From Pontiella sp. (GTDB lineage Bacteria > Verrucomicrobiota > Kiritimatiellia > Kiritimatiellales > Pontiellaceae), in the NCBI GenBank assembly GCA_050290185.1, contig JBNKHE010000009.1:1-64000 (forward strand): DNA of 64,000 bases, read 5' to 3'. Below the pieces are notes generated by a model. That model saw only the letters and a program-made list of their open reading frames with translations, was not told where the DNA came from and made no database searches. The translations under genes were made by a program, and so were the position numbers. How positions within the stretch are numbered: position 1 is the first letter of the stretch; each line of letters starts with the position of its first letter. Positions 904-18,156 of this stretch are shown here, piece after piece.

Positions 904-949
904 CTAGCCGATCAAAACATTCACAATCCATCAAGCCGAAGGTGGAAAA

Positions 950-1141
950 TTGGCAACAAATCCAATCGTAAAAGCCACCAAGACGATCGGCATCAACATG
1001 TCGGTTAAAATGGCTAATGAGCTAGAGAAGCGGGCCACTTCCATGCACCTGTCCTCCAGCACTCCGCAAAGATTATACTTCAACAGTGTAGTGATTCCGG
1101 AAACAACTGAAAGTTTCAGGAAGGCTAGCGGCTACGACTAA
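950..1141 (+). pseudogene. Small ribbon-helix-helix-like DNA-binding protein, probably frameshifted
   Basis: N-terminus KTIGINMSVKMANELEKRATSMHLSSS fits the RHH strand-helix pattern. A plausible second helix (KIILQQ) appears in another frame from ~1069, followed by TGA at 1108. Confidence 0.35.
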
Positions 1142-1408
1142 GGTGCTTTGTAATGGGGTGCGGGTCGAGATGAGATACGAAGGTAGGGATCCTTGTGTCG
1201 CTGCATGGTGGAGTTGCCTACGCGGTGACGGATGTACATCATGGTCAGCATGTACAACAAAGACTTTTGCGGAAATGTTTTTGTTCTTAGGCGTTCTAGT
1301 CTTTGAGGAGTGATCCCGACCCCTTTTGGGTCCCATCCGCGATGAGGTGGGGTGAGTGGATAGTTCCTCTCAGGAGTCTCTCGTACATATACTGTCCTAA
1401 TCCCCTAA

Positions 1409-1428
1409 TGCGGCGTATCGAGACGTAA
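1409..1428. promoter_or_regulatory. Operator-like site matching the two sites upstream of the XRE gene
   Basis: TGCGGC-GTATCGA-GACGTAA has the same TRCGGC-N7-GNCGTAA pattern as 16861-16880 (reverse) and 16897-16916. Confidence 0.5.
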
Positions 1429-1588
1429 GTTAGTAAGAAATACTATTAAGCTAGCTTGGTATCTTACCAAGGGTTGTTCTTGCTGGATGAAGGGAACCCG
1501 CATATCGTCTAAAGCTGGTAATGCGCATATTGTGCGCACTATGGCAGTTGGTTGTGCGGAGTGAGGTTTCTCTGGAGTGGTGGTATTG

Positions 1589-4477
1589 ATGGGGATCACG
1601 GATTATCACGCAAAATACTATGCTCATGAGCTGACGAAACGGTGTCCATCGGACAGCGTGGAAAAGTTTACGGCAGCATTGATGGATTCGCAGGTTGATC
1701 TCAAGCCCCACCAGGTGGATGCCGCTCTATTCGCCTTCCGCTCGCCGCTTTCCAAGGGAGCCATTCTGGCCGACGAGGTTGGACTCGGCAAAACCATCGA
1801 GGCGGGCATTGTGCTTTCCCAGAAATGGGCGGAGCGGAAGCGGAAGATATTGGTCATTGCCCCTTCCAGTCTTCGGATGCAGTGGGGCCAGGAGCTGGCT
1901 GATAAATTTTACCTTCCCTCCACCGTTCTGGATTCAAAGCTATTCAAGCAGTCCATAAAGGAAGGGTCGCTCAATCCTTTCGACACCGACGATATCGTCA
2001 TCTGTTCCTACTGTTTTGCCCGTAACAAGGCCGTTGAAGTGGCCAGCGTAAACTGGGACTTGGTGGTGATCGATGAGGCCCACCGCCTCCGTAATGTCTA
2101 CAAACCCGGCAACGTGATCGCCAACGAGCTTAAGAAATGTCTGGCTCATGCCCCGAAGATGTTGCTAACAGCCACTCCGCTGCAAAACTCGTTGATGGAA
2201 CTGTATGGGCTGGTCAGCTTTATTGACGAATATTCGTTCGGCGACCAGAAGAGCTTTCGTTCCCAGTTTGCCCGTATCACCTCTGGAAGCGTCTATGCCG
2301 ACCTGCGGGAACGGCTGAAACCTATCTGCAAACGTACCCTGCGCCGTCAGGTGCTGGAATACATCAACTACACCGCTCGTATCGCCCATACGCAGCACTT
2401 TGAGCCGACACCTGATGAACATGTTCTCTACGAGCTGGTATCGGAATATCTTCGTCGAGAGGATCTACAGGCATTGCCGAAAGGTCAGCGCAACCTGATG
2501 GTATTGGTCATGCGCAAGCTGCTGGCCTCTTCCACATTCGCCATTGCAGGCGCATTGCTTTCCTTGGCGAACCGGCTCAAAGCTCGGTTGAAAGCGGATG
2601 TGAAGTTTATTCCTCCCGTTGATCCAGACCTGGCTTATGAATTTGAATCCCTGCCAGAAGTGGCCGATGAATGGGGCATTGATCCCGATCAATTAGAAGA
2701 GCGACTTAGCGAAGAAGACCGGGAAGCCATCAGCATGGAGATCGCGGAGCTGGAGTCGTTCTATGAACTGGCTGTCAGTATCAGGGAGAATGCGAAGGGA
2801 ACGGCCCTGCTGGATGGATTGCGAGTCGGGTTTGAAATGACCTCCGCCAACGGGGGCGAACCCAAAGCATTGGTCTTCACCGAGTCCAGGCGGACCCAAA
2901 ACTATTTAGCCGAATTGCTGGCCGATAATGGCTATGCCGGGCAAGTCGTATTGTTCAACGGCTCCAATAACGATGAGAAGTCCCAATCCATTTACCGTGA
3001 TTGGAAAATCCGGCACGAAGGTAGCGACCGGGCATCCGGCGTACGTGCTGCCGACACCCGTGCCGCCATCGTCGATTATTTTCGTGATGAAGCCCAGATC
3101 ATGATTGCTACCGAAGCGGCGGCCGAGGGCATCAATCTTCAGTTTTGTTCCCAGGTCGTGAACTACGACCTTCCGTGGAATCCCCAACGAATCGAACAGC
3201 GCATTGGCCGTTGTCACCGCTATGGACAGAAACACGACGTGGTCGTGGTCAACTTCTTGAATACCAAGAATGCGGCTGATCAGCGAGTGTATGAGTTGCT
3301 TGACCAAAAGTTCCGGCTTTTTAGCGGGGTGTTTGGAGCGAGTGACGAGGTGCTTGGCAGCATCGAGTCCGGTGTGGACTTTGAAAAACGGATTGTTGAA
3401 ATCTATCAGACCTGCCGACACCCCGATGAGATCAAAGCTTCGTTCGACGCCTTGCAGGCCGAGATGGGCGACTCCATAGACGGCACCATGCGGGAAACCC
3501 GGCAAAAGCTGCTGGAGAATTTCGATACCGAGGTTGCCGAGAAGCTTAACGTCTATGAAAAAGAGAGCCTGGCCTTCCTCAGCAAGTATGAATCGCTGCT
3601 CTGGAACCTCACCCGTCACGAACTGGATGGCCTGGCTGAATTTGATGAAGAACGCCTTGGGTTCAGGCACGAGACGGGGAATTACTTTTTAAAACCACAG
3701 AATTGCCGCTTCGCTGCTGGCCATAAGCCAGCCTCACCTGAGGTGTCACTGAATGCACGGAACGAGGAGCATTGGCATCACTACCGATTGCAGCACCCGC
3801 TCGCACTGGAGATTATCCAAACCGCCAAAGATCGGGATCTGCCGGAAGCTGTCATTCGGTTCGACTACAGCGGATCGGGAAAGAATATTTCCATCCTCGA
3901 ACCTTTGGTGGGAAAACAAGGCGTCCTGACTGTTCAGAAGCTCTCTGTCCAGGCTTTGGAAACCGAGGACTATCTCTTGTTTGCTGGAATAACCGATAGC
4001 GGAGTGGTGCTGGATCAGGATCAGTGCCGACGCTTGTTCGATCTGCCGGGCGAAGTGCAGGATTTAACCACCGAGGGCACAAAGGGCACGAAGGCTATCC
4101 TTGAGCAAAGGAAGAAGCAGGTATTGGTTGAGATCTCGGAGCGGAACGCTGTGTTCTTTGACGAAGAGATGGAGAAGCTGGAAAAGTGGGCGGATGACAT
4201 CAAAAAGAGTCTGGAAATCAGGCTCAAGCAACTGGATGTAGACATCAAGACGCTCAAGACGGAATCCCGGAAGATGGCTGACCTACAGCGCAAGGTTGCC
4301 GCCCAGCGGAAAGTCAAGGAGTTGGAGAAAAAGCGGGCCGAACTGCGCCGCAATCTATTCGAAGAACAGGATCAGATTGATCAGCGGAAAGATGATCTGC
4401 TGGAAACCATTGAGGCTAGAATGTCGCAGCTGGTTGTTGACGAGGATGTGATGCGGATCGGGTGGGAAATAGTGTGA
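1589..4477 (+). CDS. SNF2/RapA-like SF2 helicase associated with type III restriction-modification
   Basis: LADEVGLGKT (Walker A), IDEAH, LTATP, EGINLQ, YDLPWNPQRIEQRIGRCHRYGQ; C-terminal coiled coil. ATG 1589 preferred over GTG 1577. Confidence 0.92.
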   Translation: MGITDYHAKYYAHELTKRCPSDSVEKFTAALMDSQVDLKPHQVDAALFAFRSPLSKGAILADEVGLGKTIEAGIVLSQKWAERKRKILVIAPSSLRMQWGQELADKFYLPSTVLDSKLFKQSIKEGSLNPFDTDDIVICSYCFARNKAVEVASVNWDLVVIDEAHRLRNVYKPGNVIANELKKCLAHAPKMLLTATPLQNSLMELYGLVSFIDEYSFGDQKSFRSQFARITSGSVYADLRERLKPICKRTLRRQVLEYINYTARIAHTQHFEPTPDEHVLYELVSEYLRREDLQALPKGQRNLMVLVMRKLLASSTFAIAGALLSLANRLKARLKADVKFIPPVDPDLAYEFESLPEVADEWGIDPDQLEERLSEEDREAISMEIAELESFYELAVSIRENAKGTALLDGLRVGFEMTSANGGEPKALVFTESRRTQNYLAELLADNGYAGQVVLFNGSNNDEKSQSIYRDWKIRHEGSDRASGVRAADTRAAIVDYFRDEAQIMIATEAAAEGINLQFCSQVVNYDLPWNPQRIEQRIGRCHRYGQKHDVVVVNFLNTKNAADQRVYELLDQKFRLFSGVFGASDEVLGSIESGVDFEKRIVEIYQTCRHPDEIKASFDALQAEMGDSIDGTMRETRQKLLENFDTEVAEKLNVYEKESLAFLSKYESLLWNLTRHELDGLAEFDEERLGFRHETGNYFLKPQNCRFAAGHKPASPEVSLNARNEEHWHHYRLQHPLALEIIQTAKDRDLPEAVIRFDYSGSGKNISILEPLVGKQGVLTVQKLSVQALETEDYLLFAGITDSGVVLDQDQCRRLFDLPGEVQDLTTEGTKGTKAILEQRKKQVLVEISERNAVFFDEEMEKLEKWADDIKKSLEIRLKQLDVDIKTLKTESRKMADLQRKVAAQRKVKELEKKRAELRRNLFEEQDQIDQRKDDLLETIEARMSQLVVDEDVMRIGWEIV

Positions 4478-4514
4478 GGATGTTTGGGAATCAGATGGAA
4501 TATGGAGGCAAACT

Positions 4515-6440
4515 ATGAAGCTGAAAGATGTGAAGATCTACAAATACAAGTGCATCGAAAATGAACAGGCTTTTCAAGTCGAAGACGATGTCACCGTTCT
4601 TGTTGGTATGAATGAATCGGGAAAGACATCGGTACTTGAAGTAATTGCCAAAACGAACTACTTCCAGCCCGAAGACGGGAAATTCAAATTCAGCAGAACA
4701 CACGACTATCCTCGGATGGAAAAGAAACAGTTAGACAAATCTGGAAAGATTCCCAACGCAGTCGCTTGCACATATGCTTTGGACGATTCCGACAAGGAAA
4801 CTCTAGCCGCCGAGCTGGGGGAGGGAGTGTTTGCTGGAGAGTCGGTGACAGTAACAACCAATTATGACAACAAGATCAGCTGGGGTCCTGTGAATGTGGA
4901 TAGAAAGCTGTTCATCGAAAACAAAACTGACGCAGCAGGCATAAAAAGCAATACACTCACGGACAAATTGTTGGGGGTTAAAACCGTCGAGCAATTAGAT
5001 AGCGTAGTTGCAGAGTACACAGATGGGGTTAAGCGTGCGGGATTGGAATCTTTGCGTCCTTACTATGAAAACGAGTGGTCATGGGAATGCCCTATTCATG
5101 AATATGTTGCTCGACGAATTCTAAAGCCTGCTTTACCAAAATTCCTTTACTACGATGAGTACTACGCCCTTCCTTCAAGAATCAGTATTAACGATCTCGA
5201 AAAGGACGAACTGGATGCGGATGAGCTTAAAACAGCGAAAGCATTGTTTGAATTGGCAGACATCAATGTGGAAGAAATAATCAACTCCGATGACTTTGAA
5301 GATTTTGTTGCAGAGCTAGAAGCTACCGAGGCGATTATCACGAAGGAACTGTTCGAATATTGGACCACAAATAGAAATTTGGATATTGTTTTCAAAATTG
5401 ACAAGCGCATTGAAACTGATGCGAGAAACAACCAACGCATTGCCGAACATGTGCTCGATATTCGTGTCAAAAACAGAAGAACCAATGTGTCCCTTCCGCT
5501 TAGGAACCGTAGCAAAGGATTTAACTGGTTTTTCTCATTCCTCGTATGGTTTTTAAAAGTACAGGAAGACCGGGACTCCAACTATGTTCTTTTATTGGAC
5601 GAGCCGGGACTGAATCTCCATGCCTCAGCCCAAGCTGATCTGCTCCGATTTATCAATGACCTTTCCAGTCAGTATCAAATCATCTACACGACCCATTCTC
5701 CGTTTATGGTTAAACCAGACCAATTGGAAAAGGTCAGAACTGTGCTTGAATCAGAAACGGGAACGCAAATATCGGACAGCCTCCATGAGAAAGATCCGAA
5801 GACGCTTTTCCCTCTTCAGGCCGCCTTAGGTTACAACATTGCCCAGAACCTCTTTATTTCGACTAATAACCTGCTAGTGGAAGGAATCTCCGATCTTGTT
5901 TACTTACAGGTCATGTCATCGGTTTTGGAGTCTGTTGGCCGAACTGGATTAGTTGATAATGTTACGATTGTCCCAACGGGAGGCTTGGAGAAGGTTGCCA
6001 CATTCATCTCTCTGTTACGGGGTAACGAGCTCAACATAGCATGCTTGCTAGATAGCTTCTCCGATCAAAAAGGGAAGCAAAAGCTCGACAACATGATTAG
6101 GAGTAAGTTGATCAAGGAGCAACAGATTAGGTTTGCTCATGAATTCGTTGATGGACTGAACCGTGCGGATATTGAAGATTTCTTCAATCCAGATGAATAC
6201 ATCAAAATGTTCAAAGCAACGTTCCCTGAACATGCAAATGTAACCGTCGCCGAGCAGGGTGAGGAGCAACAACCCATTATTAGCAGGATCAACAACGCAA
6301 TCGGTCAGACTAGGTTTAATCATTATCGACCTGCAAACTGGCTCGCCAAAGAAGGGGTGACGGCAGACTTTTTCGCACCAGAAACGCTAGAAGTATTCGA
6401 AAATGTATTCAAAGAGATCAATGTCCTCTTTGCTGAATAA
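4515..6440 (+). CDS. OLD-family ATP-dependent endonuclease (ABC ATPase + TOPRIM)
   Basis: GMNESGKT (Walker A), RSKG signature, LLLDEPG (Walker B), TTHSP (H-loop), TOPRIM LLVEGISD; SD GGAGG upstream. Confidence 0.85.
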   Translation: MKLKDVKIYKYKCIENEQAFQVEDDVTVLVGMNESGKTSVLEVIAKTNYFQPEDGKFKFSRTHDYPRMEKKQLDKSGKIPNAVACTYALDDSDKETLAAELGEGVFAGESVTVTTNYDNKISWGPVNVDRKLFIENKTDAAGIKSNTLTDKLLGVKTVEQLDSVVAEYTDGVKRAGLESLRPYYENEWSWECPIHEYVARRILKPALPKFLYYDEYYALPSRISINDLEKDELDADELKTAKALFELADINVEEIINSDDFEDFVAELEATEAIITKELFEYWTTNRNLDIVFKIDKRIETDARNNQRIAEHVLDIRVKNRRTNVSLPLRNRSKGFNWFFSFLVWFLKVQEDRDSNYVLLLDEPGLNLHASAQADLLRFINDLSSQYQIIYTTHSPFMVKPDQLEKVRTVLESETGTQISDSLHEKDPKTLFPLQAALGYNIAQNLFISTNNLLVEGISDLVYLQVMSSVLESVGRTGLVDNVTIVPTGGLEKVATFISLLRGNELNIACLLDSFSDQKGKQKLDNMIRSKLIKEQQIRFAHEFVDGLNRADIEDFFNPDEYIKMFKATFPEHANVTVAEQGEEQQPIISRINNAIGQTRFNHYRPANWLAKEGVTADFFAPETLEVFENVFKEINVLFAE

Positions 6441-6462
6441 AAGCGAAGGAACCTGTGAAATA

Positions 6463-8427
6463 ATGAGCACTAAACAAAACCAGCACATTGAAGACTATCT
6501 CGATGCCTATCGCAAAATGGATGACGTTGATTTTGCGGTCATGATTACGGGGTCATGGGGGTGTGGCAAGACTCATTTCATCGAGGATTATCTGAAACGG
6601 AAGTGCACGCCTAAGAGCGAAAAAAAATACATCTACATTAGTCTAAATGGGATATCCAATGCTGCCGATATAGACATGGCCTTGTTTCAAGCTGCGCACC
6701 CGATCTTGGGATCAAAAGTAGCTGTGATGGCAGGCAAGATTGTCAAAGCTTCAGTACGCACTGGGTTCAAGATAAATCTCGATGTTGATGGCAATGGAAA
6801 AAACGACGCAACAGGAAATGTAGGAATCCCTCTCGATGACTTTAAGCTGAAGACAAAAGGCAAGTTCCTTGTGTTTGATGACCTGGAAAGATGCCTACTC
6901 AAGCCTGAGGAGGTCCTCGGCTACATCAATTCCTTTGTCGAAAACAAGGAGGCTAAAGTTATTGTAGTTGGCGATGAAACCCAAATCGGAACACCTAAAG
7001 GCGATCAGAAGAAAGTGGGTTCTGCTTCTGTAGAGCAGAAGGCAAAAAAGAAAAAAGAGCCTTCAGAAAAGTACTGGGTGATTAAGGAAAAAGTAGTTGG
7101 TAAGACATTTAAGCTGACGGAAAACATCGAAGAGGTCCTTCCTGCTTTGATCACTAAAAAAGCCTATCCTCTGACACATGTGTTGATTCTTAATAATCGG
7201 ACCGCTGTAATCAGTGTGTTTAAGCGGGTGAATGATGAGCTGCAAGACCGCCATAACTATCGTGCACTTAAGCATGCATTCCGAGACTTTGAGTATTTCT
7301 ATTCGCATTTAGACGAAAAGCACCAGGAGCATAGAGGCTTCATTAATGATCTGTTGGGCATTTTCATTGCATTTGCATATGAACTACAACTCAAGACCAT
7401 TACCACGGACGATATCCAGACGTTGAATATACCGACACACCTGTTTTCAAGGAAAGAGGTTAAGGATGATACACCTTTGGACCTGTTTGTTGGAAGGCAT
7501 GGAATCAGCAGGCTTAACCAGATTCTTCCTGTAGACATCTGGTGTACGATTTTGAAAAATGAACCGCTAGATAAAGAAGCTCTGTTTGAGATTATTTCAT
7601 CCACTGAATACTTCCGTAAAGAAGCAGAACTGCCTGCTTGGAAAAAGTTGCAAGGCTGGTGGTTGTTGCAAGATGATGTTTGCGCCGAAGCCATTAAAAG
7701 CGTTCGCAAAGAGCTAGAGGAGTACACATATAAAACTCCTCTGATGATCCTCCATGTATTTGGGGTCATGATGGAGTTGGCAGCCTCAAACATGATTGAA
7801 GAATCCAAGGACGATATTCTACAGACAGGCATCAACTATTTGGGTGCACTGCTCAAAGAGGGAAGCCTTGAGCTTCCGGACCGTAAATTTGATTATGATC
7901 TGATGGATGGATTCATGGCGAATAGATTCGCAGGCCATCAAAATGCAGAATTCAAGGAGTTACATGAAAAGGTGGCTAGTAGCCTGAGGCTCGCCAGAGT
8001 TGAAGATCAAAAGTCTAAGGTTCCTGAGATACTTGAAACTCTCAAAAGAGATCCGGATGAATTTCGACAAAATATTGGCTTCGAGGGGGAATGGTTCAAT
8101 GAGCCAGTCCTATCTCTGATATCTCCCAATGAGTTCTATTCGGCCTTGAGACAAACTTCTAACCATGGAGTTCTGTTTGTCGAGGATGGCTTAAAGCGGA
8201 GGTACGAGTTCATCAATACTTTCCCAGGGCTGGTCGTTGAATTGGATTTCCTAAAAAAGCTTCGTGAGTTGGTTGATGAGGATCTTGGGAAACGGGAAGG
8301 ACTAAAGACGCCTTCATCAAATGCATTTGAACGATTGCGAGCTATGCTAACTAGACTGATTAAGCTTATAGAGCAGAATGAAATTAATACAGCGGCCTCG
8401 GATGATGCAGATGAAATTGCGGAGTAA
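6463..8427 (+). CDS. KAP-family P-loop NTPase
   Basis: AVMITGSWGCGKT (Walker A), YIYISLNG, LVFDDLERC (Walker B), KEKVVGKT; long helical C-terminus. ATG 6463 follows the OLD stop. Confidence 0.85.
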   Translation: MSTKQNQHIEDYLDAYRKMDDVDFAVMITGSWGCGKTHFIEDYLKRKCTPKSEKKYIYISLNGISNAADIDMALFQAAHPILGSKVAVMAGKIVKASVRTGFKINLDVDGNGKNDATGNVGIPLDDFKLKTKGKFLVFDDLERCLLKPEEVLGYINSFVENKEAKVIVVGDETQIGTPKGDQKKVGSASVEQKAKKKKEPSEKYWVIKEKVVGKTFKLTENIEEVLPALITKKAYPLTHVLILNNRTAVISVFKRVNDELQDRHNYRALKHAFRDFEYFYSHLDEKHQEHRGFINDLLGIFIAFAYELQLKTITTDDIQTLNIPTHLFSRKEVKDDTPLDLFVGRHGISRLNQILPVDIWCTILKNEPLDKEALFEIISSTEYFRKEAELPAWKKLQGWWLLQDDVCAEAIKSVRKELEEYTYKTPLMILHVFGVMMELAASNMIEESKDDILQTGINYLGALLKEGSLELPDRKFDYDLMDGFMANRFAGHQNAEFKELHEKVASSLRLARVEDQKSKVPEILETLKRDPDEFRQNIGFEGEWFNEPVLSLISPNEFYSALRQTSNHGVLFVEDGLKRRYEFINTFPGLVVELDFLKKLRELVDEDLGKREGLKTPSSNAFERLRAMLTRLIKLIEQNEINTAASDDADEIAE

Positions 8428-8436
8428 GGCAGGAAT

Positions 8437-10218
8437 ATGAGCAAGAAACAAAAGCTGGAGCTGACGTGGATTGGGAAGGATGAGCAGGCGGTGCTGGAGC
8501 CCCGCATTCTGATCGAGGACCCGGAAAAGAGCTATGGCGACCCCCATTCCGAAAACATGCTGATCCACGGCGACAACCTGCTTGCCCTGAAAGCCCTCGA
8601 ACAAAAGTTTGCAGGTAAGGTGAAGTGCATCTATATCGACCCGCCATTTAATACAGGGCAGGCATTCGATAATTACGATGATGGCCTCGAACATTCATTG
8701 TGGTTGAGCCTAATGAGAAATCGTGCAATTCACTTAAAGAATCTATTGAGTGAGGATGGATCTCTATTTGTTCATATCGATGATAATGAAATCGGGTACC
8801 TCATCGTCTTATTGGATGAAATCTTTGGTCGTGGGAACCGAATCTCAATAGTCACCTTCAAGCAAGGCTCTGCTACAGGTCATAAAGCAATCAATCCTGG
8901 GGTGGTTACTACAACGAATTATATTCTTCTGTATGCGAAGAACAAATCACTTTGGTCGCCACACAGGGTGTTTACAGCAAGAGGACGTGATGAGCGATAC
9001 TCCCAGTTCATAGATAATTACGATGATAAATATGAGAACTGGAGTTTGATTCCCTTAAGTCAGGCCGTTGCAAAATCTCTAGGGATTGAGCCACGGGCGT
9101 TAAAAAGAACACTAGGGACAACATATGATAGCGTTTTTGATGAGTTCGTTTTGCAAAATGCACATCGCGTGATTCAGTTAGCCCGTCCAGATTATAATTC
9201 TGTTGGACAAAATGTACGGGACACGATTGATGTCTCAAACCAGGAACCTGATAGAGTTTTTCTACTCAAGAGAGAAAATCATTCAGATATGTTTTTCATA
9301 GGAGGTCGGAGGCTTCTTTTTTACAAGAATAAGCTGAAGAAGATCGATGGCCAGCTAGTTGCCGGAGAACCTTTGACAAATCTGTGGCACGACTTGCTTT
9401 CTAATAACCTACATAAAGAGGGTGGCGTTAAATTCCCAAAGAGTAAGAAGCCAGAGGCTTTAATTAAGCGTGTGCTTGAGTTGGCGACAAACAAAGGAGA
9501 TCTGGTACTGGATTCATTTTTAGGCTCTGGGACAACCGTCGCGGTTGCTCACAAGATGGGACGTAAATGGATTGGCGTGGAACTGGGCGAACACTGTGAT
9601 TCCCATTGCCTTCCTAGATTACGTGTGGTGTGCGATGGCTCAGATCAAGATGGGGCATCTAAAGCAGTGAGTTGGAAAGGCGGCGGCGGCTTCAAATATT
9701 ATGATCTTGCGCCGAGCCTGTTGAAACAGGACAAGCACGGAAACTATGTGATTTCGGAGGAGTACAACGCCGACATGCTGGCGGCGGCGATGGCGCGGCA
9801 GGAGGGCTTTACCTACCAACCGCATCAGGAGCTGTATTGGAAGCAGGGCTATTCCACTGAGCAGGATTTCATCTTTACCACCACCGGCCATGTAACGGCC
9901 ACGATGCTCGACACCATTGCCGAGGAGATGGCCGAGGGCGAACACCTGCTGATCTGCTGCAAGAAATTCGACACGGCGTGTACGAACCGTCACCCGAACA
10001 TCCAGGTCAAAAAGATTCCGGCGATGCTGATGGGCCGCTGCGAATTCGCCAAAGAGGACTACAGCCTCAACATCGTCAACCTGACCGATGCCGAAAACGC
10101 CCCCGAATTTGTGCCGGAAGGCCCTGGAGATGTGGGGAAGAAGTCGGATGGCGGAGGGCAGAAGTCGGCATCCCGTAAGCGCGGGAATAAGAATCCTCAG
10201 CAAGGGGAACTGTTTTAG
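8437..10218 (+). CDS. mod: Type III restriction-modification methyltransferase (Mod, beta-class amino-methyltransferase)
   Basis: KLELTWIGK N-terminus, IHGDNL, YIDPPFNTG (motif IV), KPEALI, LDSFLGSGTT (motif I), WKGGGGFKYY. Confidence 0.93.
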   Translation: MSKKQKLELTWIGKDEQAVLEPRILIEDPEKSYGDPHSENMLIHGDNLLALKALEQKFAGKVKCIYIDPPFNTGQAFDNYDDGLEHSLWLSLMRNRAIHLKNLLSEDGSLFVHIDDNEIGYLIVLLDEIFGRGNRISIVTFKQGSATGHKAINPGVVTTTNYILLYAKNKSLWSPHRVFTARGRDERYSQFIDNYDDKYENWSLIPLSQAVAKSLGIEPRALKRTLGTTYDSVFDEFVLQNAHRVIQLARPDYNSVGQNVRDTIDVSNQEPDRVFLLKRENHSDMFFIGGRRLLFYKNKLKKIDGQLVAGEPLTNLWHDLLSNNLHKEGGVKFPKSKKPEALIKRVLELATNKGDLVLDSFLGSGTTVAVAHKMGRKWIGVELGEHCDSHCLPRLRVVCDGSDQDGASKAVSWKGGGGFKYYDLAPSLLKQDKHGNYVISEEYNADMLAAAMARQEGFTYQPHQELYWKQGYSTEQDFIFTTTGHVTATMLDTIAEEMAEGEHLLICCKKFDTACTNRHPNIQVKKIPAMLMGRCEFAKEDYSLNIVNLTDAENAPEFVPEGPGDVGKKSDGGGQKSASRKRGNKNPQQGELF

Positions 10219-10251
10219 CCACAAGATGCATAAGAGTTGGAGAAGAATACC

Positions 10252-11817
10252 GTGAGCGATAAACCATTTGAAGTTACCAGCGATTGGGTTCAACGGCTAC
10301 TGAAAGCCCCCGAGTTTGAGCAGCAGGATTTTAAACGGGCTGGCGCAGTAAAAAGCGTTTTGAAAACAGCGTGCGCCATGGCGAACGGTGATGGTGGACT
10401 CATTATTTTCGGAGTGGATGATCCGAAGAACGGTGCGAGCGAGGATCGATTACTTGGCATTGAGGAAAATCCTGAAGCATTGGGCGAGGTTAAGCGTGGG
10501 TTTTACGATGAGATCGAACCCCCATTGGATGCCCCGGAGACCAAATACCCGGAGTTTATGGAGGTTCCGATCAAGAAGTCATCGGGTGAGATCATAACGG
10601 TTTTCCTGATCAGAATAAGCAAAAGCAATAGTGTCCATTCGTACAACAATGCGACCTATGTCCGTTCCGGGAGCCAGAGCAGGCAGATTAATGCACAGCA
10701 AATTCATAAGCTTTGTCTGCGCCGAGGTGTGGATTCTGTTGTGAATCAACCGGTCGATATTCCCGTCGAATTGCTGGAGACGGAATGGTGGCGGCAATAT
10801 GCCCGACAGCGGGAGCTGACCCGGGATGCGGCGGATGCCATGAAGCACTTGGGGCTGCTTGTTAACGATGGTGCTGAATGGAAGCCGACGATGGCTGCAG
10901 TTCTACTATTTGCAGAGGAGCCTAATGGTTTGTTGGGCAGGAAGTGCTCCATTCGCATCTTCCACTATCACGGACATGAAATTGAATATGATTCCGATAC
11001 CAACTTGGTTCGTCCGCCAGTCACCGTCAGTGGACCGCTTTTAAAACAAATCCGTTTGGCAGTTGAGGTCGTTTCCAGAGAACTGAATTCCGGTGTGCAG
11101 AGAACAAAGGATGGCTTCGATTTAAAGCAGCAGTATCCTGAGAAAGTGATCCAGGAGGCCATTACCAACGCTGTGCTTCATCGTGACTACAGTACTCCAG
11201 GAGACATACATGTGCGCATCTTTACCAATCGTGTGGAGGTCGAAAGCCCAGGATCTTTCCCGGGGGCAGTGACATCAGGGAACATCGGAGAAGTCGGCAG
11301 TCATCCGCGGAATCCAAAACTTACTGACCATATCCGGGAATTTCCTGTTCCTCCAAACCTGGATGCCGGCGAAGGGGTGCGGATGATGCGTTCGACCATG
11401 GATCGTCTGGGATTGTATCCTCCAGTTTTTCAGGAGGAGTCTAAGCAGCGTAAAGAGGTCGTGCTGGTCCGCATTTCCAACGAGGCTAAACTTTCCGAGT
11501 GGGAGTTGGTTAAGGATTATCTAAATGAACATGATTCGATAGGAAACAAGGAACTGCGCACCATCCTTAATCTGGCAACCTCGGAAAGCCATAAGGGCTC
11601 CCGGCTTTTTAAAGAGTGGGTTGATTCCGGACTTTTAAAGATTGCAAACCCGAAAGAGGGAACTCGAAATCGACGATATGTTTTAGCGACCAAACCTGAG
11701 TTGTTTGCAGGATCCCTTGCAATCAATGAAGGAGATAGTCTTATGTCTATCATTGGCAAAGGGTTATTCAGCACGTTGCTTGCACTGGATACTGCGAGGA
11801 GAAATGAAGGGCAGTAG
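10252..11817 (+). CDS. AlbA_2 (Schlafen-like) + HATPase_c_4 + C-terminal wHTH protein
   Basis: EFEQQDFK...CAMANGDGGLIIFGVDD (AlbA_2); EAITNAVLHRDY, ESPG, RNPKL, GEGV (HATPase_c_4); C-terminal HTH-like segment. GTG 10252 has an upstream GGAG. Confidence 0.85.
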   Translation: MSDKPFEVTSDWVQRLLKAPEFEQQDFKRAGAVKSVLKTACAMANGDGGLIIFGVDDPKNGASEDRLLGIEENPEALGEVKRGFYDEIEPPLDAPETKYPEFMEVPIKKSSGEIITVFLIRISKSNSVHSYNNATYVRSGSQSRQINAQQIHKLCLRRGVDSVVNQPVDIPVELLETEWWRQYARQRELTRDAADAMKHLGLLVNDGAEWKPTMAAVLLFAEEPNGLLGRKCSIRIFHYHGHEIEYDSDTNLVRPPVTVSGPLLKQIRLAVEVVSRELNSGVQRTKDGFDLKQQYPEKVIQEAITNAVLHRDYSTPGDIHVRIFTNRVEVESPGSFPGAVTSGNIGEVGSHPRNPKLTDHIREFPVPPNLDAGEGVRMMRSTMDRLGLYPPVFQEESKQRKEVVLVRISNEAKLSEWELVKDYLNEHDSIGNKELRTILNLATSESHKGSRLFKEWVDSGLLKIANPKEGTRNRRYVLATKPELFAGSLAINEGDSLMSIIGKGLFSTLLALDTARRNEGQ

Positions 11818-11874
11818 AAAATATAGCGATTTAGAGGTTCTTGGATTGCTTGCAAACTTGCCTGCAAGCAATCC
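11701..11874. repeat. Three palindromes TTGnTTGCA-N8-TGCAAnCAA
   Basis: 11701-11726; 11776-11801 (right arm degenerate); 11843-11874 (perfect 12-bp arms GGATTGCTTGCA/TGCAAGCAATCC). Confidence 0.7.
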
Positions 11875-12038
11875 TGTTAAATTTTATAAACCCTACAATG
11901 CGAAGTAGATGAGTTGTTGGTTTCTTGCGGGAGTGGGTTTTTTGGTTAATCAGCCGACAGGTGGAATACAAGAACAAGAACCCAGATAAAAAGACAGGCG
12001 ATATATGGACATTTTCAGGGATCATAAGGTGCAAATGC

Positions 12039-12164
12039 AGGATCCGGAATCAGGTGGGTAAAATGAGACATAGAAACCCAGATCTCATTTTTTGAATGTA
12101 AACTTTAGATATAAATAGCTGTAGCTCATTTTTAGGATCCGAAACTGAGGTATGAAAAATGAGC
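12039..12164. repeat. Cluster of AAAATGAG inverted and direct repeats upstream of res
   Basis: AAAATGAGA(12060)..TCTCATTTT(12083); GCTCATTTTT(12124)..AAAAATGAGC(12155). Confidence 0.6.
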
Positions 12165-12193
12165 GTTAATTTTGGGAATGGGGAAGAAGATTT

Positions 12194-14869
12194 ATGAATA
12201 CCAAAGCAAACTATGTCCGTAGCCGGTTGAGTCTCCGGAAACCCCAGGCCGAGAGTCTGGAGATCCTTCAGGAATTGACCGATGTACTGGAGTTGAAGAA
12301 GAATCCAGACTTGGCTGCCGAGCTGGCCAAGGTTCAGGCGCGTTACCCCATCTGCGCCGACTTCGAGCGCGATTTCATATCGATCTGCTTTGCGCTGGCA
12401 ACCGGTGTGGGGAAAACCCGTCTGATGGGCGCGTTTATTTCCTATCTTTACCTTGAAAAGGGAATCAGGAATTTCTTCGTAATGGCCCCGAACCTGACGG
12501 TCTACGACAAACTGATCACCGATTTTTCGCAGCCAACGCATCCAAAGTATGTTTTCAGGGGGATCGCGGAATTTGTGACCAAACCACCGTTGGTCATTAC
12601 CGGGGATTCATACACCAAGCATGAAAGTACCCGGCAGGATGACATGTACACATCCATCCGAATCAACGTATTCAATATCTCCAAGCTGAACTCGGAAACC
12701 CGTGGCGGCAAGGAACCCCGGATTAAACGATTGCAGGAGTGTCTGGGTGATTCCTACTTCAACCATCTGGCCAGTCTGGACGACTTGGTGCTGCTGATGG
12801 ATGAAAGCCATCATTACCGGGCCGACCGGGGCATGGCGGTGATCAATGAACTGAATCCGATTCTGGGGCTGGAGTTGACCGCTACTCCCCAGGTAGAGCG
12901 GGGGCAAAACAGCATCAAGTTCAAGAACGTGGTCTATGAATACTCGCTGGCCAGGGCGATCCGGGATGGGTATGTCAAAGAACCCGCAGTGGCAACCCGT
13001 AAGGAATTCAACCCTGATGGCTACACTCCTGAGGAGTTGGATCGAATCAAGCTGGAGGATGGGGTACGTATCCACGAGCATACCCGCAATCAGTTGGACA
13101 TCTTTGCCAGGGACAATAAAGCCGATTTGGTGAAGCCATTCGTTCTCGTGGTGGCCAAGGATACGGAGCATGCTTCCCAATTGATGTCCTTGATCCAGTC
13201 TACGCGATTCTTTGAGGGACGCTATGCTGACAAGGTAATGGAGATCCATTCCAACCAGACCGGTTCGGAAAAGGAAGAAAACGTGCAGCATTTGCTGTCG
13301 TTGGAAGATCCCAAGAGCCGCATCGAGATCGTGATTCACGTCAACATGCTGAAGGAAGGCTGGGACGTGACGAATCTCTACACCATCATTCCGTTGCGTA
13401 CTGCGGCTTCCATGACGCTTCGGGAGCAGACGATTGGCCGTGGTCTTCGGTTGCCCTACGGAAAACGTACCGGTGTCAAACAGGTGGATCTACTGACCAT
13501 CATTGCCCATGACAAGTTCCAACAGATTGTGGATGCAGCAAATGACCCGAACTCTCTGATCCGGAAGGAGAATATCATCGAGATCGATCCCGATGCCCTG
13601 CTCCATAAGAAGGAGGTCGTTACAGCGGTTTCGATTTTGGAGGAGGAGATTCAGGAAGAACGTAAAAAGGTCGAACAGATTGAGTCTAAGGAGGAGCGGC
13701 AACAGGCCACCTTCAAACTCGATGCCAAGGCGGCCATTTTGGAGGTTCTTCCGGAAATCGGAAAGACGGCGTCGAGTACGTCCGATCTGCTGACCGATGA
13801 GGTTAAGAAACGTGTTGTGGCTAAAGTACGGGAGAGGGTGCAATCCGACCCTCAACAGAACCTGTTTGCTGCCGAAATTGTAAAGGAGGCCGAAGCCCGA
13901 TATCTGGATGATGCCAGGGATTTCATTGCCCGCATCATTGAGATTCCGAGAATCATGATTGTCCAGAAAGGTGAGGTGGTTTCAGGCTTCAACGATTTCG
14001 AGCTGGATACCTCCGCCCTGAATTTTCAGCCGGTTTCGGAGGAAATATACCGGCGGTCATTACAGAGTAACGAAGTGGACCACATTACCGGGAGCGGAGG
14101 AATAGAGCAGGATCGTTTGGACAATGTGCTGGTTAATGAGTTGCTCAACCAGCCAGAGGTTGATTACGACGATCAGGCCGATCTTCTCTTCAAGCTTACC
14201 GGTCAGGTGATCAGTCACTTAGGGTCATATCTCGATGAAAAAGAAATGCAGAACGTTATCGTGTATCACAAAAGAGCCATTGCAGATCAGATCTACTCCC
14301 AGATGATGCAGCACTTCTTTATCGAGGAACCGGAGTACGAGGATACAAAGGTCTATCCCTTCGTTCAGATTGAGTCTCATAACTTTGAAAAGCTGACGGA
14401 TGACCGCATTCACGATTTCAAGGAGACTATCAATCCTACCTCGTCCATCCCGTCCAAGGTGTTCGTCGGTTTCCAGAAAGCCTGTCACCTGAAGTACAAG
14501 TTCGACTCCAAGACGGAAAAGGATTTTTCCATGCTCCTGGAAGAAGACGGACAAGTGTTGAAATGGATGCGCCCCGCAAGAAACCAGTTCACAATTCTCT
14601 ATGCGCGAAATACGAAGCGGTATGAACCGGACTTCGTGGTGGAAACAGAGTCGGTCATCTTCATGGTGGAAACCAAAAGCCAGCGGGACATGGGAACAGA
14701 GGATGTGGCGAAGAAGACCGAGGCGGCTTTGACCTACTGCTCCAACGCAACCACATTCACGACATCCAATGGCGGGAAGCCATGGAAATATCTGCTGATT
14801 CCGCATGACGCAGTTATGCACAACATGAGTTTTGATGGCCTGGCATCCAAGTACGAGGTGCGTGGCTAA
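12194..14869 (+). CDS. res: Type III restriction endonuclease Res subunit (SF2 helicase + PD-(D/E)xK nuclease)
   Basis: LATGVGKT, LMDESHHY, LTATP, LKEGWDV, EQTIGRGLRLP; C-terminal YEPDFVVE...VETK. Confidence 0.93.
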   Translation: MNTKANYVRSRLSLRKPQAESLEILQELTDVLELKKNPDLAAELAKVQARYPICADFERDFISICFALATGVGKTRLMGAFISYLYLEKGIRNFFVMAPNLTVYDKLITDFSQPTHPKYVFRGIAEFVTKPPLVITGDSYTKHESTRQDDMYTSIRINVFNISKLNSETRGGKEPRIKRLQECLGDSYFNHLASLDDLVLLMDESHHYRADRGMAVINELNPILGLELTATPQVERGQNSIKFKNVVYEYSLARAIRDGYVKEPAVATRKEFNPDGYTPEELDRIKLEDGVRIHEHTRNQLDIFARDNKADLVKPFVLVVAKDTEHASQLMSLIQSTRFFEGRYADKVMEIHSNQTGSEKEENVQHLLSLEDPKSRIEIVIHVNMLKEGWDVTNLYTIIPLRTAASMTLREQTIGRGLRLPYGKRTGVKQVDLLTIIAHDKFQQIVDAANDPNSLIRKENIIEIDPDALLHKKEVVTAVSILEEEIQEERKKVEQIESKEERQQATFKLDAKAAILEVLPEIGKTASSTSDLLTDEVKKRVVAKVRERVQSDPQQNLFAAEIVKEAEARYLDDARDFIARIIEIPRIMIVQKGEVVSGFNDFELDTSALNFQPVSEEIYRRSLQSNEVDHITGSGGIEQDRLDNVLVNELLNQPEVDYDDQADLLFKLTGQVISHLGSYLDEKEMQNVIVYHKRAIADQIYSQMMQHFFIEEPEYEDTKVYPFVQIESHNFEKLTDDRIHDFKETINPTSSIPSKVFVGFQKACHLKYKFDSKTEKDFSMLLEEDGQVLKWMRPARNQFTILYARNTKRYEPDFVVETESVIFMVETKSQRDMGTEDVAKKTEAALTYCSNATTFTTSNGGKPWKYLLIPHDAVMHNMSFDGLASKYEVRG

Positions 14870-14944
14870 TGCCTACTGTTTTTGAAGCTGATGTTAAAAT
14901 CAAAACTCTTGTGAGTAGCCATAACGGTTAATAAGGAGCACCGC

Positions 14945-15979
14945 ATGAGCGCATTGGATGGGGCGGTAGTAGTTTTAGAACAGGCCGGAAAGCCTTTGCA
15001 TTATAGGGAGATTACCGAGCGCATGGTTAAGTTCGGTATTTGGAGCACCAAGGGAAAAACACCCGAAGCGACCGTCAACGCGCAACTGGCCGTGGACATC
15101 AAAAAGAGCGGCAAGGCCTCCCGATTCATGCGCTTCGGGCGTGGGATCTTCGGTCTCAATACTGATCGCGCAGAAGTCTCGCCGGCCAAAGAATGCCGCT
15201 CTGAGAACCAAGTCTTGTACATTGCCAAGGCCGGTACCTGCTCGTTTACAGATGCCGCCGAGCGCATCCTCAACGGTGCCGGCGGCCAGCCCATGCATTA
15301 CCGCGACATTACCCGGCACGCCCTTGACCACAAGCTGCTCAATACCCAGGGTAAGACCCCCGAGGCCACGATGTATGCCCAGGTGCTGACGGAAACCCGC
15401 CGTCGCAAGCTACGGGGCGAGCAACCTCGCTTCATGATGCTCGGCAAAGGCATGGTGGCACTCAGCCGCTGGGAGGCGCAAGGTGTGGCCTATCAGGTGG
15501 AGCAATCCAACCGTAAGGCGCGCGCCGAACTGCTGAAACGGATCAAGACCATGCCGCCCGCGGATTTCGAGGAACTGGTAGGCGAACTGCTAGCCGCCAT
15601 CGGCTTCGATGAAGTGGAGGTTACCTCCCGTTCCAAGGATGGAGGCATCGATGTCCGCGGTAGACTGGTTGTCGGCGATGTGATCCGCACCCGCTTGGCG
15701 GTTCAGGTTAAACGCTGGAAGAACAACGTACAGGCTCCCGTCATCCAGCAGGTACGTGGTAGCTTGGGGGCCCACGAACAGGGGCTGATCATCACTACCA
15801 GCGATTTTAGTAAAGGTGCCCGCAATGAGGCTGAGCGATCCGATGCTACTCCCGTCGGTCTAATGGCAGGTGAGCAGCTGGTCGGCCTATTGGTCGAGAA
15901 TGAGATCGGCGTTAAACGAACTCCTCTTAACCTCATAGAGATTGCTGACGGCTCCTCGATGGAGAATAAGCAGCTGTAG
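14945..15979 (+). CDS. Mrr-family restriction endonuclease with two N-terminal HARE-HTH domains
   Basis: Two copies of P(L/M)HYR(E/D)IT...GKTPEAT; FEELV, DGGIDV, AVQVKRW, IITTSDFS (Mrr_cat). Confidence 0.88.
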   Translation: MSALDGAVVVLEQAGKPLHYREITERMVKFGIWSTKGKTPEATVNAQLAVDIKKSGKASRFMRFGRGIFGLNTDRAEVSPAKECRSENQVLYIAKAGTCSFTDAAERILNGAGGQPMHYRDITRHALDHKLLNTQGKTPEATMYAQVLTETRRRKLRGEQPRFMMLGKGMVALSRWEAQGVAYQVEQSNRKARAELLKRIKTMPPADFEELVGELLAAIGFDEVEVTSRSKDGGIDVRGRLVVGDVIRTRLAVQVKRWKNNVQAPVIQQVRGSLGAHEQGLIITTSDFSKGARNEAERSDATPVGLMAGEQLVGLLVENEIGVKRTPLNLIEIADGSSMENKQL

Positions 15980-15989
15980 GGCTGATTAA

Positions 15990-16628
15990 ATGAAAGAAAT
16001 TGACCTCCAGATTGGTTTTTCTACAGGAATGCAGCTCGATGTGTCGAAGCTGTATGCGCCCCCTCCTGCTGGTCAGAATCAGGTATTACTCGGCGCTATG
16101 AATGTACAGGAGCTTCGTGAAGAAATTGAGATAGCTCGGCGGAACGGAGCTCAAGTTGTTTGGGCAGCGCTTGAGGTCGAACAGGCCATGGAGCACATCA
16201 TTTCGGATCACATGTTTTTCCCCATGGGAATTATGCCACCGCGTGATTTCTTCAATAGGCACATCCTGACCAGCAGTTTCTTTGGTTTTGCGCCCAAAAA
16301 GGAACTCGTCCGGGAGATAGTTAATAAACGTGGCCTTTTGGACGCTAAGGAAAAGAATACTTTGCCCGGCCATTTAAAGAAGGTAATGGACAGGCGCAAC
16401 GCTTTCGCTCATGGGAAGATCACTGGCATGCAGGATCAAGGGTGCTTTTTAGAGTACTTTTCAGGGGGCCAGAAAGAGGTCTTGCTCACAGATAAATTCT
16501 GGGAGGAGCTGACCACTGCCTTCCTAGGAGCCAAAGCGCTCCTTAAAAAGGCTCGCTCAGAGTTACTCAAGCAATATGTTGCGTCTGTATCAGTTCCGGC
16601 GGCTTTTGATTCGGGGGCGGGCATCTGA
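15990..16628 (+). CDS. Hypothetical protein with a HEPN-like RxxxxH motif
   Basis: All-alpha-looking sequence; ALEVEQAMEHII upstream and RNAFAH motif; 10 nt after the Mrr stop. Confidence 0.6.
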   Translation: MKEIDLQIGFSTGMQLDVSKLYAPPPAGQNQVLLGAMNVQELREEIEIARRNGAQVVWAALEVEQAMEHIISDHMFFPMGIMPPRDFFNRHILTSSFFGFAPKKELVREIVNKRGLLDAKEKNTLPGHLKKVMDRRNAFAHGKITGMQDQGCFLEYFSGGQKEVLLTDKFWEELTTAFLGAKALLKKARSELLKQYVASVSVPAAFDSGAGI

Positions 16629-16639
16629 ACGCCGTCTGC

Positions 16640-16861
16640 TTAGAAATCCATCAATTGATCCCACTCGCTACCCAATGCTTGTTGGATGCGGGAGGCCGTT
16701 GTAATTAGAATGTTCGTCTGACCTGCCTCGATCTTTTGAATGGTGCGGATATTCAAATCCGCCAGCTCGGCCAGCTTTTCCTGAGTGATTCCCTTCTCAT
16801 TGCGCAGTCGGCGGATATTGCCGCCAAAGGTTTTGAGCTGATTTTTAACCGCTAGTTTCAT
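16640..16861 (-). CDS. XRE/Cro-C1 HTH transcriptional regulator (C-protein-like)
   Basis: FGGNIRRLRNEKGITQEKLAELADLNIRTIQKIEAGQTN, 73 aa. Confidence 0.9.
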   Translation of the reverse strand: MKLAVKNQLKTFGGNIRRLRNEKGITQEKLAELADLNIRTIQKIEAGQTNILITTASRIQQALGSEWDQLMDF

Positions 16862-16919
16862 TACGGCGCACTATGCCGCAATGAATCCTTTGACAGTACG
16901 GCACAACAGGGCGTAAGAT
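16861..16919. promoter_or_regulatory. Divergent control region: two operators and a sigma70 promoter for the 16955 gene
   Basis: TACGGC-N7-GCCGCA (16862-16880) and TACGGC-N7-GGCGTA (16897-16915). TTGACA(16890)-18 nt-TAAGAT(16914) brackets the second operator. Confidence 0.7.
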
Positions 16920-16954
16920 TTCTCCGTTTCAACAAAGCGATCTCTGGGAAGGCC

Positions 16955-17539
16955 ATGTTAACGCGAAAGCAGTATCATCACCTGTTTATAAGCAAGCCTG
17001 CTACGGCATTGTATTTGTCGCGGGGGCGGCGAAAACCAATTCGTCAGCGTCCTCCCGGGAAACTCGGTCCACCATCATATGAGCCGTGGGATATAGTTAT
17101 GACTTATGGGCGCCCGTACTATCCCCTTGGGAAAATATTAATTCCTCTTTGCCGGGATCATCGTACGATGATTTATGAGCGCCAAGCCCGTTTGCTTGTA
17201 GAGCTAGGCATTCCAGAGAGGGTTGTTCTGGCTTATCAGGAAGTCTTGCTCCTTTATCTAGAAAATATAGCCATTACTCGCGTCGTGAAATTATTTGGGA
17301 TTTCAGCGCTTCGCAAAGCTCTTCCAGAAATCCAGACACGCAATGAAGCTGTTACTTTAATGACTCGTGCGCACAGCCTGACGGCAAATGAAGGCCAGCT
17401 TCTACAAACAATCCTTCCCAACAGAATCCCGATACTGCCGGTAGATGAAGTGCAAGAGACATGGAAAGAAGCTTTAGCCTCCATGGAGAACGAAGCTTAT
17501 CAGCAGTTTGTGAGAAACCAGGAGCCCCGGCATGGCTGA
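16955..17539 (+). CDS. Hypothetical protein
   Basis: 194-aa ORF downstream of a good promoter; overlaps the next gene; no family recognised. Confidence 0.55.
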   Translation: MLTRKQYHHLFISKPATALYLSRGRRKPIRQRPPGKLGPPSYEPWDIVMTYGRPYYPLGKILIPLCRDHRTMIYERQARLLVELGIPERVVLAYQEVLLLYLENIAITRVVKLFGISALRKALPEIQTRNEAVTLMTRAHSLTANEGQLLQTILPNRIPILPVDEVQETWKEALASMENEAYQQFVRNQEPRHG

Positions 17540-17876
17540 TTTCTTAAATCCTCTGGTTCTCGTATCCGTGGTCGCCTTGGTCATAGGGATCGGATTCCTC
17601 GCGGAATGGTTAGAGAGGAAAAAAGAGCTCTATCAGATTTCGCGACAACTCCAAAATGGCGAGCCTACCTGTGGAACTTGCGCGAAACGGTGCACCAAGC
17701 TATGTCTCCATGGGGTAGGGTTGACTGCAAAAATGAGACCCGCCTGCGAACAATTCGATTTATCGCCCCAGTATATTCACATCGGAGAAGCCAAAGGGTT
17801 CTTCTACACATACAGCCTTCGTGTTTTGGCCATCATCGCAACGATAGGGGCATTGGCATGGGGATGTTTTTTCTGA
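17532..17876 (+). CDS. Hypothetical two-TM membrane protein with a Cys-rich loop
   Basis: Hydrophobic N- and C-terminal segments; CGTCAKRCTKLC...PACEQF; SD AGGAG. Confidence 0.65.
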   Translation: MADFLNPLVLVSVVALVIGIGFLAEWLERKKELYQISRQLQNGEPTCGTCAKRCTKLCLHGVGLTAKMRPACEQFDLSPQYIHIGEAKGFFYTYSLRVLAIIATIGALAWGCFF

Positions 17877-18040
17877 ATACAAACCTGATCGACTCTGCGA
17901 TAAAATCTTTACTATTACCCATAGCTTAGAATCATTGGATAATGGTTGGTGGATTGGTTGGTTTTTGGTCGCTGAATTTCTCAAAGTTCGTGATGTTTCA
18001 GGCGATGCTTGAAAAATGGGTGGAAACTCGCGATAAGTGC

Positions 18041-18072
18041 AAAAATAAAGGCCGGAACGTGTGTTCCGGCCT
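18041..18072 (-). terminator. Intrinsic terminator of tRNA-Met
   Basis: AGGCCGGAAC-loop-GTTCCGGCCT 10-bp stem, followed by TTATTTTT on the minus strand. Confidence 0.85.
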
Positions 18073-18079
18073 CTAAAAT

Positions 18080-18156
<77 letters not shown>

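Follow-up and report, generated by a model that had tools for sequence, protein, structure and literature searches.

The window analysed in this study, a stretch of 64,000 nucleotides of contig JBNKHE010000009.1 from a Pontiella species (assembly GCA_050290185.1), contains eight co-oriented genes at 1589–16628 of the + strand. They encode an SNF2 ATPase, an OLD-like protein, a KAP NTPase, the modification subunit (Mod) of a restriction-modification (R-M) system of type III, a Schlafen protein, the restriction subunit (Res), a HARE-HTH-Mrr protein and a HEPN protein (Table 1). Is this array a single defence system that has not yet been named, or a known operon in which other genes have found a place? 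An earlier note on this DNA regarded SNF2, Mod and Res as a conserved core with cargo slots. The comparison with related loci indicated that the array is a real, intact and cargo-rich case of the published SNF2-associated type III architecture, and not a new eight-part system. In the explanation that we favour, and consider likely, an optional SNF2 motor gene precedes a type III R-M operon, and five further genes, each mobile on its own, would act as independent back-up defences.

The type III operon and its slots

All of the eight genes are unbroken. The gaps between them are 37, 22, 9, 18, 376, 75 and 10 nucleotides (nt) in gene order, so the tight spacing described in the earlier note was confirmed, with one 376-nt gap before res. 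Most of the domains that it had named were matched by Pfam families: SNF2 with Helicase_C, KAP_NTPase, N6_N4_Mtase, ResIII, SLFN_AlbA_2 with HATPase_c_4, two HARE-HTH domains with Mrr_cat, and HTH_3 in the convergent XRE gene. However, the winged helix-turn-helix assigned to the AlbA protein has no Pfam match. A single Logan contig of 17,342 nt covers 631–17972 and is letter-identical to the window. The four runs behind this contig belong to a single study, and the window itself may stem from them, so the match is an assembly check and not independent support.

Table 1. Features of the array and its surroundings in the window.
Feature	Position	Strand
SNF2 ATPase, 962 residues, DrmD/RapA-like, optional leader of the type III operon	1589..4477	+
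Cargo 1: OLD-like ABC ATPase-TOPRIM protein, 641 residues	4515..6440	+
Cargo 2: KAP P-loop NTPase, 654 residues, PADLOC candidate PDC-S49	6463..8427	+
Type III Mod, beta-class amino-methyltransferase, 593 residues	8437..10218	+
Cargo 3: Schlafen (AlbA_2)-HATPase_c_4 protein, at most 526 residues	10237..11817	+
Perfect 12-bp inverted repeat, then T-rich tract; candidate intrinsic terminator or operator	11843..11874	+
Putative last codons of a lost Fic gene (scar), then conserved res leader	11996..12193	+
Type III Res, SF2 helicase and C-terminal PD-(D/E)XK nuclease, 891 residues	12194..14869	+
Cargo 4: two HARE-HTH domains and Mrr nuclease, 344 residues	14945..15979	+
Cargo 5: stand-alone HEPN protein of a family without a library model, 212 residues	15990..16628	+
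XRE gene (16640-16861) and conserved 60-nt upstream element, neighbour outside the array	16640..16921	-
tRNA-Met, 3' end toward the island, variable site	18080..18156	-

Mod matched the MTase_III profile of PADLOC with 585 bits. Its DPPF (motif IV) at residue 68 precedes FLGSG (motif I) at residue 361, which is the motif order of the type III beta class, and its middle part, where the target-recognition domain is expected, is AT-rich. DPPY/F is found in m6A and m4C Mods alike (PMC8259958). Res matched the PADLOC profile REase_III with 628 bits and keeps its motifs intact, namely ATGVGKT (Walker A), DESH, QTIGRGLR (motif VI) and a C-terminal PDF...ETK. As in the canonical type III systems EcoP15I and EcoP1I, a beta-class Mod is encoded upstream of an SF2 helicase-PD-(D/E)XK Res. 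In contrast to them, mod and res are not adjacent here and an SNF2 gene leads. Considering the intact motifs and the established type III biochemistry, Mod would mark an asymmetric site on one of its strands, while Mod and Res in complex would slide with ATP and cut unmarked DNA.

Murray et al. (2021, PMC8259958) described, for over 500 genomes, type III systems in which mod is preceded on its 5' side by an additional helicase-like ATPase. In Eco86II, this ATPase was dispensable for methylation and for cutting, and it was undetected in the cutting fraction (PMC8259958). According to a preprint, EcoR22I carries a drmD-like SNF2, its suppressor insertions hit only mod and res, mod and res alone restrict lambda, and in response to Ocr its restriction is linked to death of the cell (Silas et al., bioRxiv 10.1101/2023.04.06.535777). 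Eco86II, BspHIV and EcoR22I resemble the window in having an SNF2 ATPase 5' of mod and res, which in the window is probably without a nuclease. The SNF2 protein of the window is 45–46% identical over its full length (~960 residues) to the extra helicase of E. coli NCTC86, whose gene is located upstream of mod and res and co-oriented as in the window. From the description in PMC8259958, we infer that the NCTC86 locus is Eco86II. However, its Mod and Res have 1040 and 1126 residues, against 593 and 891 here. The two Mods are 35% identical over 135 residues, and the Res match has an E value of 0.009. In addition, the NCTC86 operon holds no inner genes, whereas the window operon has three inside and two behind. 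Since Mod and Res of NCTC86 represent a different lineage, the results obtained with Eco86II and EcoR22I carry over by analogy only.

The earlier note did not recognise the combination as a named system. That is correct in so far as no single PADLOC model set covers the array, but the SNF2-Mod-Res scaffold is already in print (PMC8259958; bioRxiv 10.1101/2023.04.06.535777). A name or a test of the eight-gene set was not found in the literature, with thin coverage of subscription papers, and the supplements of the two publications may list such loci. Because the scaffold is known, the array itself is not a discovery.

Related loci were collected with two anchors. With SNF2 as the anchor, 31 loci were found, 12 were dropped (11 with less than 5 kb downstream and one distant) and 19 were kept. 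With Res as the anchor, a close Res was found in 23 of 400 genomes of the phylum. Inserted genes appeared in 16 of the 18 SNF2 loci that are complete with Mod and Res. Among these 18, L023 has no insert, and mod is broken in L019, so its slot content is not readable. The inserts include Abi_2, GmrSD, AIPR, Fic, AAA_21 with DUF4276, and RloC-like AAA_13 genes. The Res-anchored loci further hold YhcG, PDDEXK_3 and SIR2-HerA (the family scan of the slots covered 91 of the 168 flanking open reading frames (ORFs) listed). Five inner genes each are found in L025 and L026, compared with three in the window. None of the related loci with inserts carries the cargo set of the window, and the closest full locus, L012 (Res 82% identical), has an entirely different one. 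Two cargo genes of the window at 40% identity or more were together in none of the 209 fetched loci, duplicates included. The collected loci and their tabulated slot genes showed that the SNF2-Mod-Res scaffold recurs with variable genes between its members, as the earlier note had proposed. The slots turn over, as the comparison of loci shows. The turnover would probably proceed through recombination between conserved core genes, and read-through would give a newcomer free expression. As a separate observation, an AAA ATPase and subtilase pair stands immediately before mod in L081 and L117, and the genome of L081 has no SNF2.

A single integrated system of eight proteins, yet unnamed, is largely refuted by this comparison and is now very improbable. 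The co-orientation, intactness and mostly tight spacing of the genes, and a set that no PADLOC system covers, would suit it. However, none of the other fetched loci combines two of the cargo genes, SNF2 is absent from 14 of the 23 Res genomes, the 376-nt gap contains a Fic scar and a hairpin, and the GC content of the genes spreads from 0.43 to 0.58. The GC values are 0.437 for the OLD-like gene and 0.432 for the KAP gene, both at or under the 1st percentile of the 1,318 long ORFs of the genome, 0.484 for mod, 0.494 for the AlbA gene, 0.508 for res and 0.493 for the HEPN gene. The Mrr gene is GC-rich (0.577, 72nd percentile). The AlbA and HEPN genes are not AT-richer than mod and lie near res. 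The AT-richer cargo of the earlier note is therefore reduced to two clear cases of five, OLD and KAP.

The slots also host RhuM and toxin-antitoxin genes, and many related loci are decaying, with Mod or SNF2 split. These observations, together with the Fic and YhcG inserts, would agree with cargo that is mostly selfish or neutral, carried by a tolerant insertion site with little defence value. In contrast, the catalytic motifs are kept in all five cargo genes of the window, two of the genes match PADLOC candidate models, and relatives of the HEPN gene stand beside type I R-M, ZorD and TIR-macro genes. Passengers of this kind are hence a highly unlikely explanation. Judged by their motifs, a role of the cargo genes as effectors of back-up defence or abortive infection is plausible. 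Under the favoured explanation of mobile back-up genes, they would together act on phages that get past the methylation-based restriction. Comparable is the type I R-M operon that hosts PrrC, with an inserted back-up nuclease. In BREX operons with GmrSD or BrxU, a methylation-based front line is likewise accompanied by back-up nucleases inserted in the operon. The difference from the BREX and type I hosts is that the scaffold here is type III and its cargo changes at nearly every locus. The slots between SNF2, mod and res are a rich source of candidate defence genes, of which five intact ones are present here.

The SNF2 gene as an optional leader

The SNF2 protein matched DrmD of PADLOC with 707 bits and DrmD_b of NCBIfam with 710 bits. 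Its helicase motifs are intact, and its closest match is from a Pontiella species (86%). DISARM class I was considered, as DrmD is the best profile match of this protein. It was rejected because the 710 bits stay below the equivalog cut-off of 950 bits. DISARM class I also comprises drmABC and drmMI, but among the 12 proteins scanned, no other was best matched by a DISARM model.

The linkage of SNF2 to the type III genes is one-sided. Of the 19 SNF2 loci that extend 5 kb or more downstream, 18 carry both Mod and Res. From the side of Res, SNF2 is in place at only 6 of 15 loci with at least 8 kb upstream and anywhere in the genome in 9 of the 23 Res genomes. SNF2 as an obligatory member of the core, which the earlier note had implied, therefore has to be given up. 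In six loci without SNF2 (L080, L085, L090, L092, L095 and L098), Mod is encoded by one long ORF and Res is complete; L098 retains an SNF2 fragment, and a part of the SNF2-less loci is in decay. In a quick tree of 34 Res proteins, a sample that mixes SNF2- and Res-anchored loci from draft genomes, the SNF2-less state required eight changes, at least seven of them forced by well-supported branches. SNF2 leads at least three size classes of Mod and Res. The family was also found, by DNA match, in 283 of 5,426 E. coli genomes, some of the matches being short and weak, and in 46 plasmid records. The one-sided linkage and the several Mod/Res classes indicate that SNF2 is an optional and promiscuous leader. 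They narrow its role to that of a dispensable helper, probably without a specific binding partner.

The nearest match of SNF2 in the PDB by sequence is RapA (E 2.5e-39). RapA reportedly takes RNA polymerase off DNA. No Pfam nuclease family was found in SNF2, and the model of its C-terminus gave no clear nuclease match in a search dominated by coiled coil; a wide fold search with the C-terminus returned coiled coils only. We tentatively suggest that SNF2 is a RapA-like, nuclease-less motor. It would free DNA of bound proteins, for example RNA polymerase or restriction complexes that have become stuck, and, by analogy with the tested systems, would be helpful yet dispensable.

In one related locus (L115, genome G459, 14897–17881, - strand), a single frame fuses SNF2 residues 1–746 to the C-terminal nuclease domain of Res, and mod is gone. 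A family of SNF2-nuclease fusions was considered and rejected, since the L115 protein alone carries the SNF2 domain among the best 120 of 5,281 hits. The fusion is therefore regarded as a one-off deletion.

The five cargo genes

The OLD-like protein matched Pfam AAA_15 and an OLD-like TOPRIM, the latter with 21.5 bits against a cut-off of 23.2. OLD nucleases combine an ABC ATPase with a TOPRIM domain that has a conserved E and DxD. In this family, DxxxD stands where DxD is expected. At least 6,917 relatives were found, and a Pfam TOPRIM is listed for most homologues. The ATPase motifs and the residues E456, D460, D513, D552, E554 and D555 are kept in all 120 close homologues, and D517 in 118 of them. 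Judging by these motifs, the protein would be an ATP-regulated DNA nuclease. Gabija was rejected for this gene: its neighbours are SNF2 and KAP and not a UvrD helicase, and GajA models reached 69 bits at most. The KAP protein matched PDC-S49, a PADLOC candidate model, over its whole length with 466 bits, its Walker A and B motifs are intact, and a sensor or a toxin is suggested by them. PifA was rejected for it, as no PifA model matched and the PADLOC hits are three PDC-S49 models only. The OLD-like gene was found in none of the 400 phylum genomes at E 1e-60 and the KAP gene in three. Therefore, these two genes are not travelling together in the phylum.

The Schlafen protein has the prokaryotic Schlafen motif Ex4(E/D)xK of the AlbA_2 domain in the form Ex4DxK, as EFEQQDFK at residue 26, and its true start is probably a few codons later than 10237. 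An orthologue of 66–67% identity is located between SNF2 and Mod in L013, that is, in another slot and beside another Mod/Res class. A metagenome scan with the AlbA protein gave no match. According to PMC13056530, Ex4DxK is catalytic in a phage-triggered Schlafen tRNase, and a fusion with an ATPase-like domain, as in the window, is the commonest architecture. Seven Schlafen proteins were tested there, and the two protective ones are Ig-like and DUF262 fusions and not of the HisKinase type. From its motif, the window protein may be a gated tRNA nuclease.

The Mrr protein matched PDC-S02 of PADLOC with 145 bits, and the D...QxK motif was read from the sequence. It has been suggested that HARE-HTH domains recognise modified bases (PMC11037411). 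The motifs of the window protein point to a nuclease that would act against modified DNA. Its orthologues in two congeners (84–88%; L111 and L112) stand beside WYL and PD-(D/E)XK genes, with no core gene near them in the fetched stretches.

The freshest part of the array is the last gene, which belongs to a HEPN family without a model in any library. Its 212-residue protein had no match in Pfam, PADLOC or NCBIfam, and its family comprises 559 clusters at E up to 0.001. The RNxxH motif is invariant (R136, N137 and H141 in 150 of 150 aligned members), in accordance with the Rx4H of HEPN RNases. Among 37 sampled relatives, five hit Pfam HEPN_RiboL-PSP weakly, one of them above the cut-off, and none matched a PADLOC model. 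In a fold search with the predicted model, HEPN chains ranked first with Z of 6–7.4, none reaching 8, and the top match was 2hsb (Z 7.4, root mean square deviation (rmsd) 3.1, 106 aligned residues). Foldseek with the same model gave no match, a PDB profile search gave none under E 0.1, and a viral scan with the alignment of the family gave none. The motif and the predicted fold support the HEPN-like label given earlier, and the motif suggests that the protein may be an RNase. In 26 inspected loci, with 62 of 127 neighbours scanned, several relatives adjoin type I or type II R-M, ZorD or TIR-macro genes. Other loci have housekeeping neighbours, and there is no fixed partner. In L162 (1142–10332), a relative has a ZorD-like SNF2-Mrr gene on one side and hsdM-hsdS-AAA_13, a run of type I genes, on the other.

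HepS, a single-HEPN abortive infection protein (PMC13043305), is similar in being a stand-alone HEPN protein of ~210–220 residues with RxxxxH and a poorly ordered N-terminal segment. It appeared in the fold search with Z 6.2 and an rmsd of 11 Å, but it has no detectable sequence match to the window protein. A bolder proposal can be put together from these parts. Type III operons led by SNF2 would in general be a hotspot, so far unrecognised, of new anti-phage genes, and the operon of the window would hold at least one new single-gene system. The HEPN protein would be a HepS-like RNase triggered by a phage protein binding its conserved N-terminal strand, and SNF2 would be a RapA-derived clearer of RNA polymerase roadblocks that lets the sliding Mod-Res reach a second site. 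This proposal is speculative, and we consider it rather doubtful as a whole.

Several points weigh against independent back-up genes behind a clearing motor. The tested SNF2-type III systems belong, as their sequences indicate, to a different Mod/Res lineage. The fold likeness of the SNF2 C-terminus to RapA is weak (E 4e-3 to 2e-2 with a predicted model). The Schlafen-HATPase architecture of the window is not among the protective Schlafens of PMC13056530. Finally, certain cargo recurs. Loci of type III and of type I (L013, L086, L118, L122, L130 and L161) contain Schlafen- or DUF4062-HATPase genes, and ABC ATPase-nucleases are found in the first slot (L016, L082 and L090). By inspection, these recurrences appear to exceed a free draw. 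Cargo whose identity is not random would suit a guard that is linked to the restriction complex. In such a guarded restriction, one or more cargo proteins, most likely the Schlafen-HATPase or the OLD-like protein, would watch Mod-Res and bring about cell death once an inhibitor from a phage blocks it. PrrC guards a type I system likewise. The RloC-like AAA_13 genes in the slots and the response of EcoR22I to Ocr point in the same direction. However, a specific interface is hard to reconcile with the occurrence of the same cargo families in varied slots and next to type I systems as well as varied Mod/Res lineages, and the Mrr and HEPN orthologues occur without the core. Guarded restriction is thus considered unlikely, and separately mobile back-up genes are preferred.

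The gap before res and the flanks

The 376-nt gap reads as a record of cargo turnover in which an earlier Fic gene was lost. Positions 11996–12034 encode C-terminal residues of Fic; of these 13 residues, 7 agree with the end of the intact Fic that L012 has at this place. In addition, 165 nt of the gap match a Fic remnant in L130 at 78% DNA identity, and the 74 nt before res match the leader before res in L012 at 85%. As the protein match to Fic is weak alone (E 0.013), the call rests on the DNA matches and on the position. The locus L130 (genome G007, 7000–9633) is a type I R-M operon. It contains a gene for a Schlafen-HATPase protein and the remnant of a deleted Fic gene, and its hsdR is preceded by the same leader. 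It has the same slot anatomy in another restriction type. A 59–67-nt element at 1320–1386 of the window has two copies on contig C11, one of them beside a Fic-like gene.

Upstream of the Fic scar, a hairpin is found with a 12-bp arm, a length that did not arise when the gap was shuffled 500 times by mononucleotides. The hairpin may terminate a first transcript or be an operator. It argues against a single transcript of the array and may split it into two; the array probably makes one from SNF2 to Schlafen and another from res to HEPN. Promoter-like and terminator-like sites over the region (12 and 16) are not above chance (17.6 and 17.9), and no RNA dataset covering 8437–14869 was listed. A structured RNA in the gap was rejected by its folding z of -0.49 against shuffles.

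The XRE gene is present and convergent to the array, but it is not the closing member described in the earlier note. Five relatives have orthologues of 69–79% identity with the same upstream 60 nt. The divergent genes next to them vary, and the stretches fetched contain no core gene. Since they recur without core genes, XRE is a separate neighbour module. The controller (C) gene of an R-M system stands upstream of the restriction gene and is co-oriented with it. XRE as a controller protein was rejected, as it is downstream and convergent and its orthologues have no R-M genes nearby.

The array block lies 1.2 kb from the 3' end of the tRNA-Met gene, a site with unrelated content in all four congeners examined. 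Within the contig, there was no integrase, and the 3' end of the tRNA was not repeated on the left side of the island. As the first base of the window is also that of its contig, the left border of the island may be missing. The 3' part of the tRNA-Met with downstream DNA (17943–18130) recurs at three places on contig C10 (54–87 nt, 90–98%), possibly as attachment-site scars. The first 903 nt of the window encode an Ig-like protein of the DUF1573 family, of which contig C2 carries a paralogue (86% DNA identity), and L071 has a DUF1573 gene near the same tRNA-Met. At 951–1110, there is a frameshifted remnant of a small ORF, presumably ribbon-helix-helix-like; similar DNA is found in many relatives, often in several copies. 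Divergent from XRE, two + strand ORFs at 16955–17539 (194 residues) and 17532–17876 (114 residues) have no family or clear relatives, and all Atlas scores of the longer one are below 0.9. A sigma-70-like site with 10 of 12 matching positions (16890–16919) is directed at these two ORFs.

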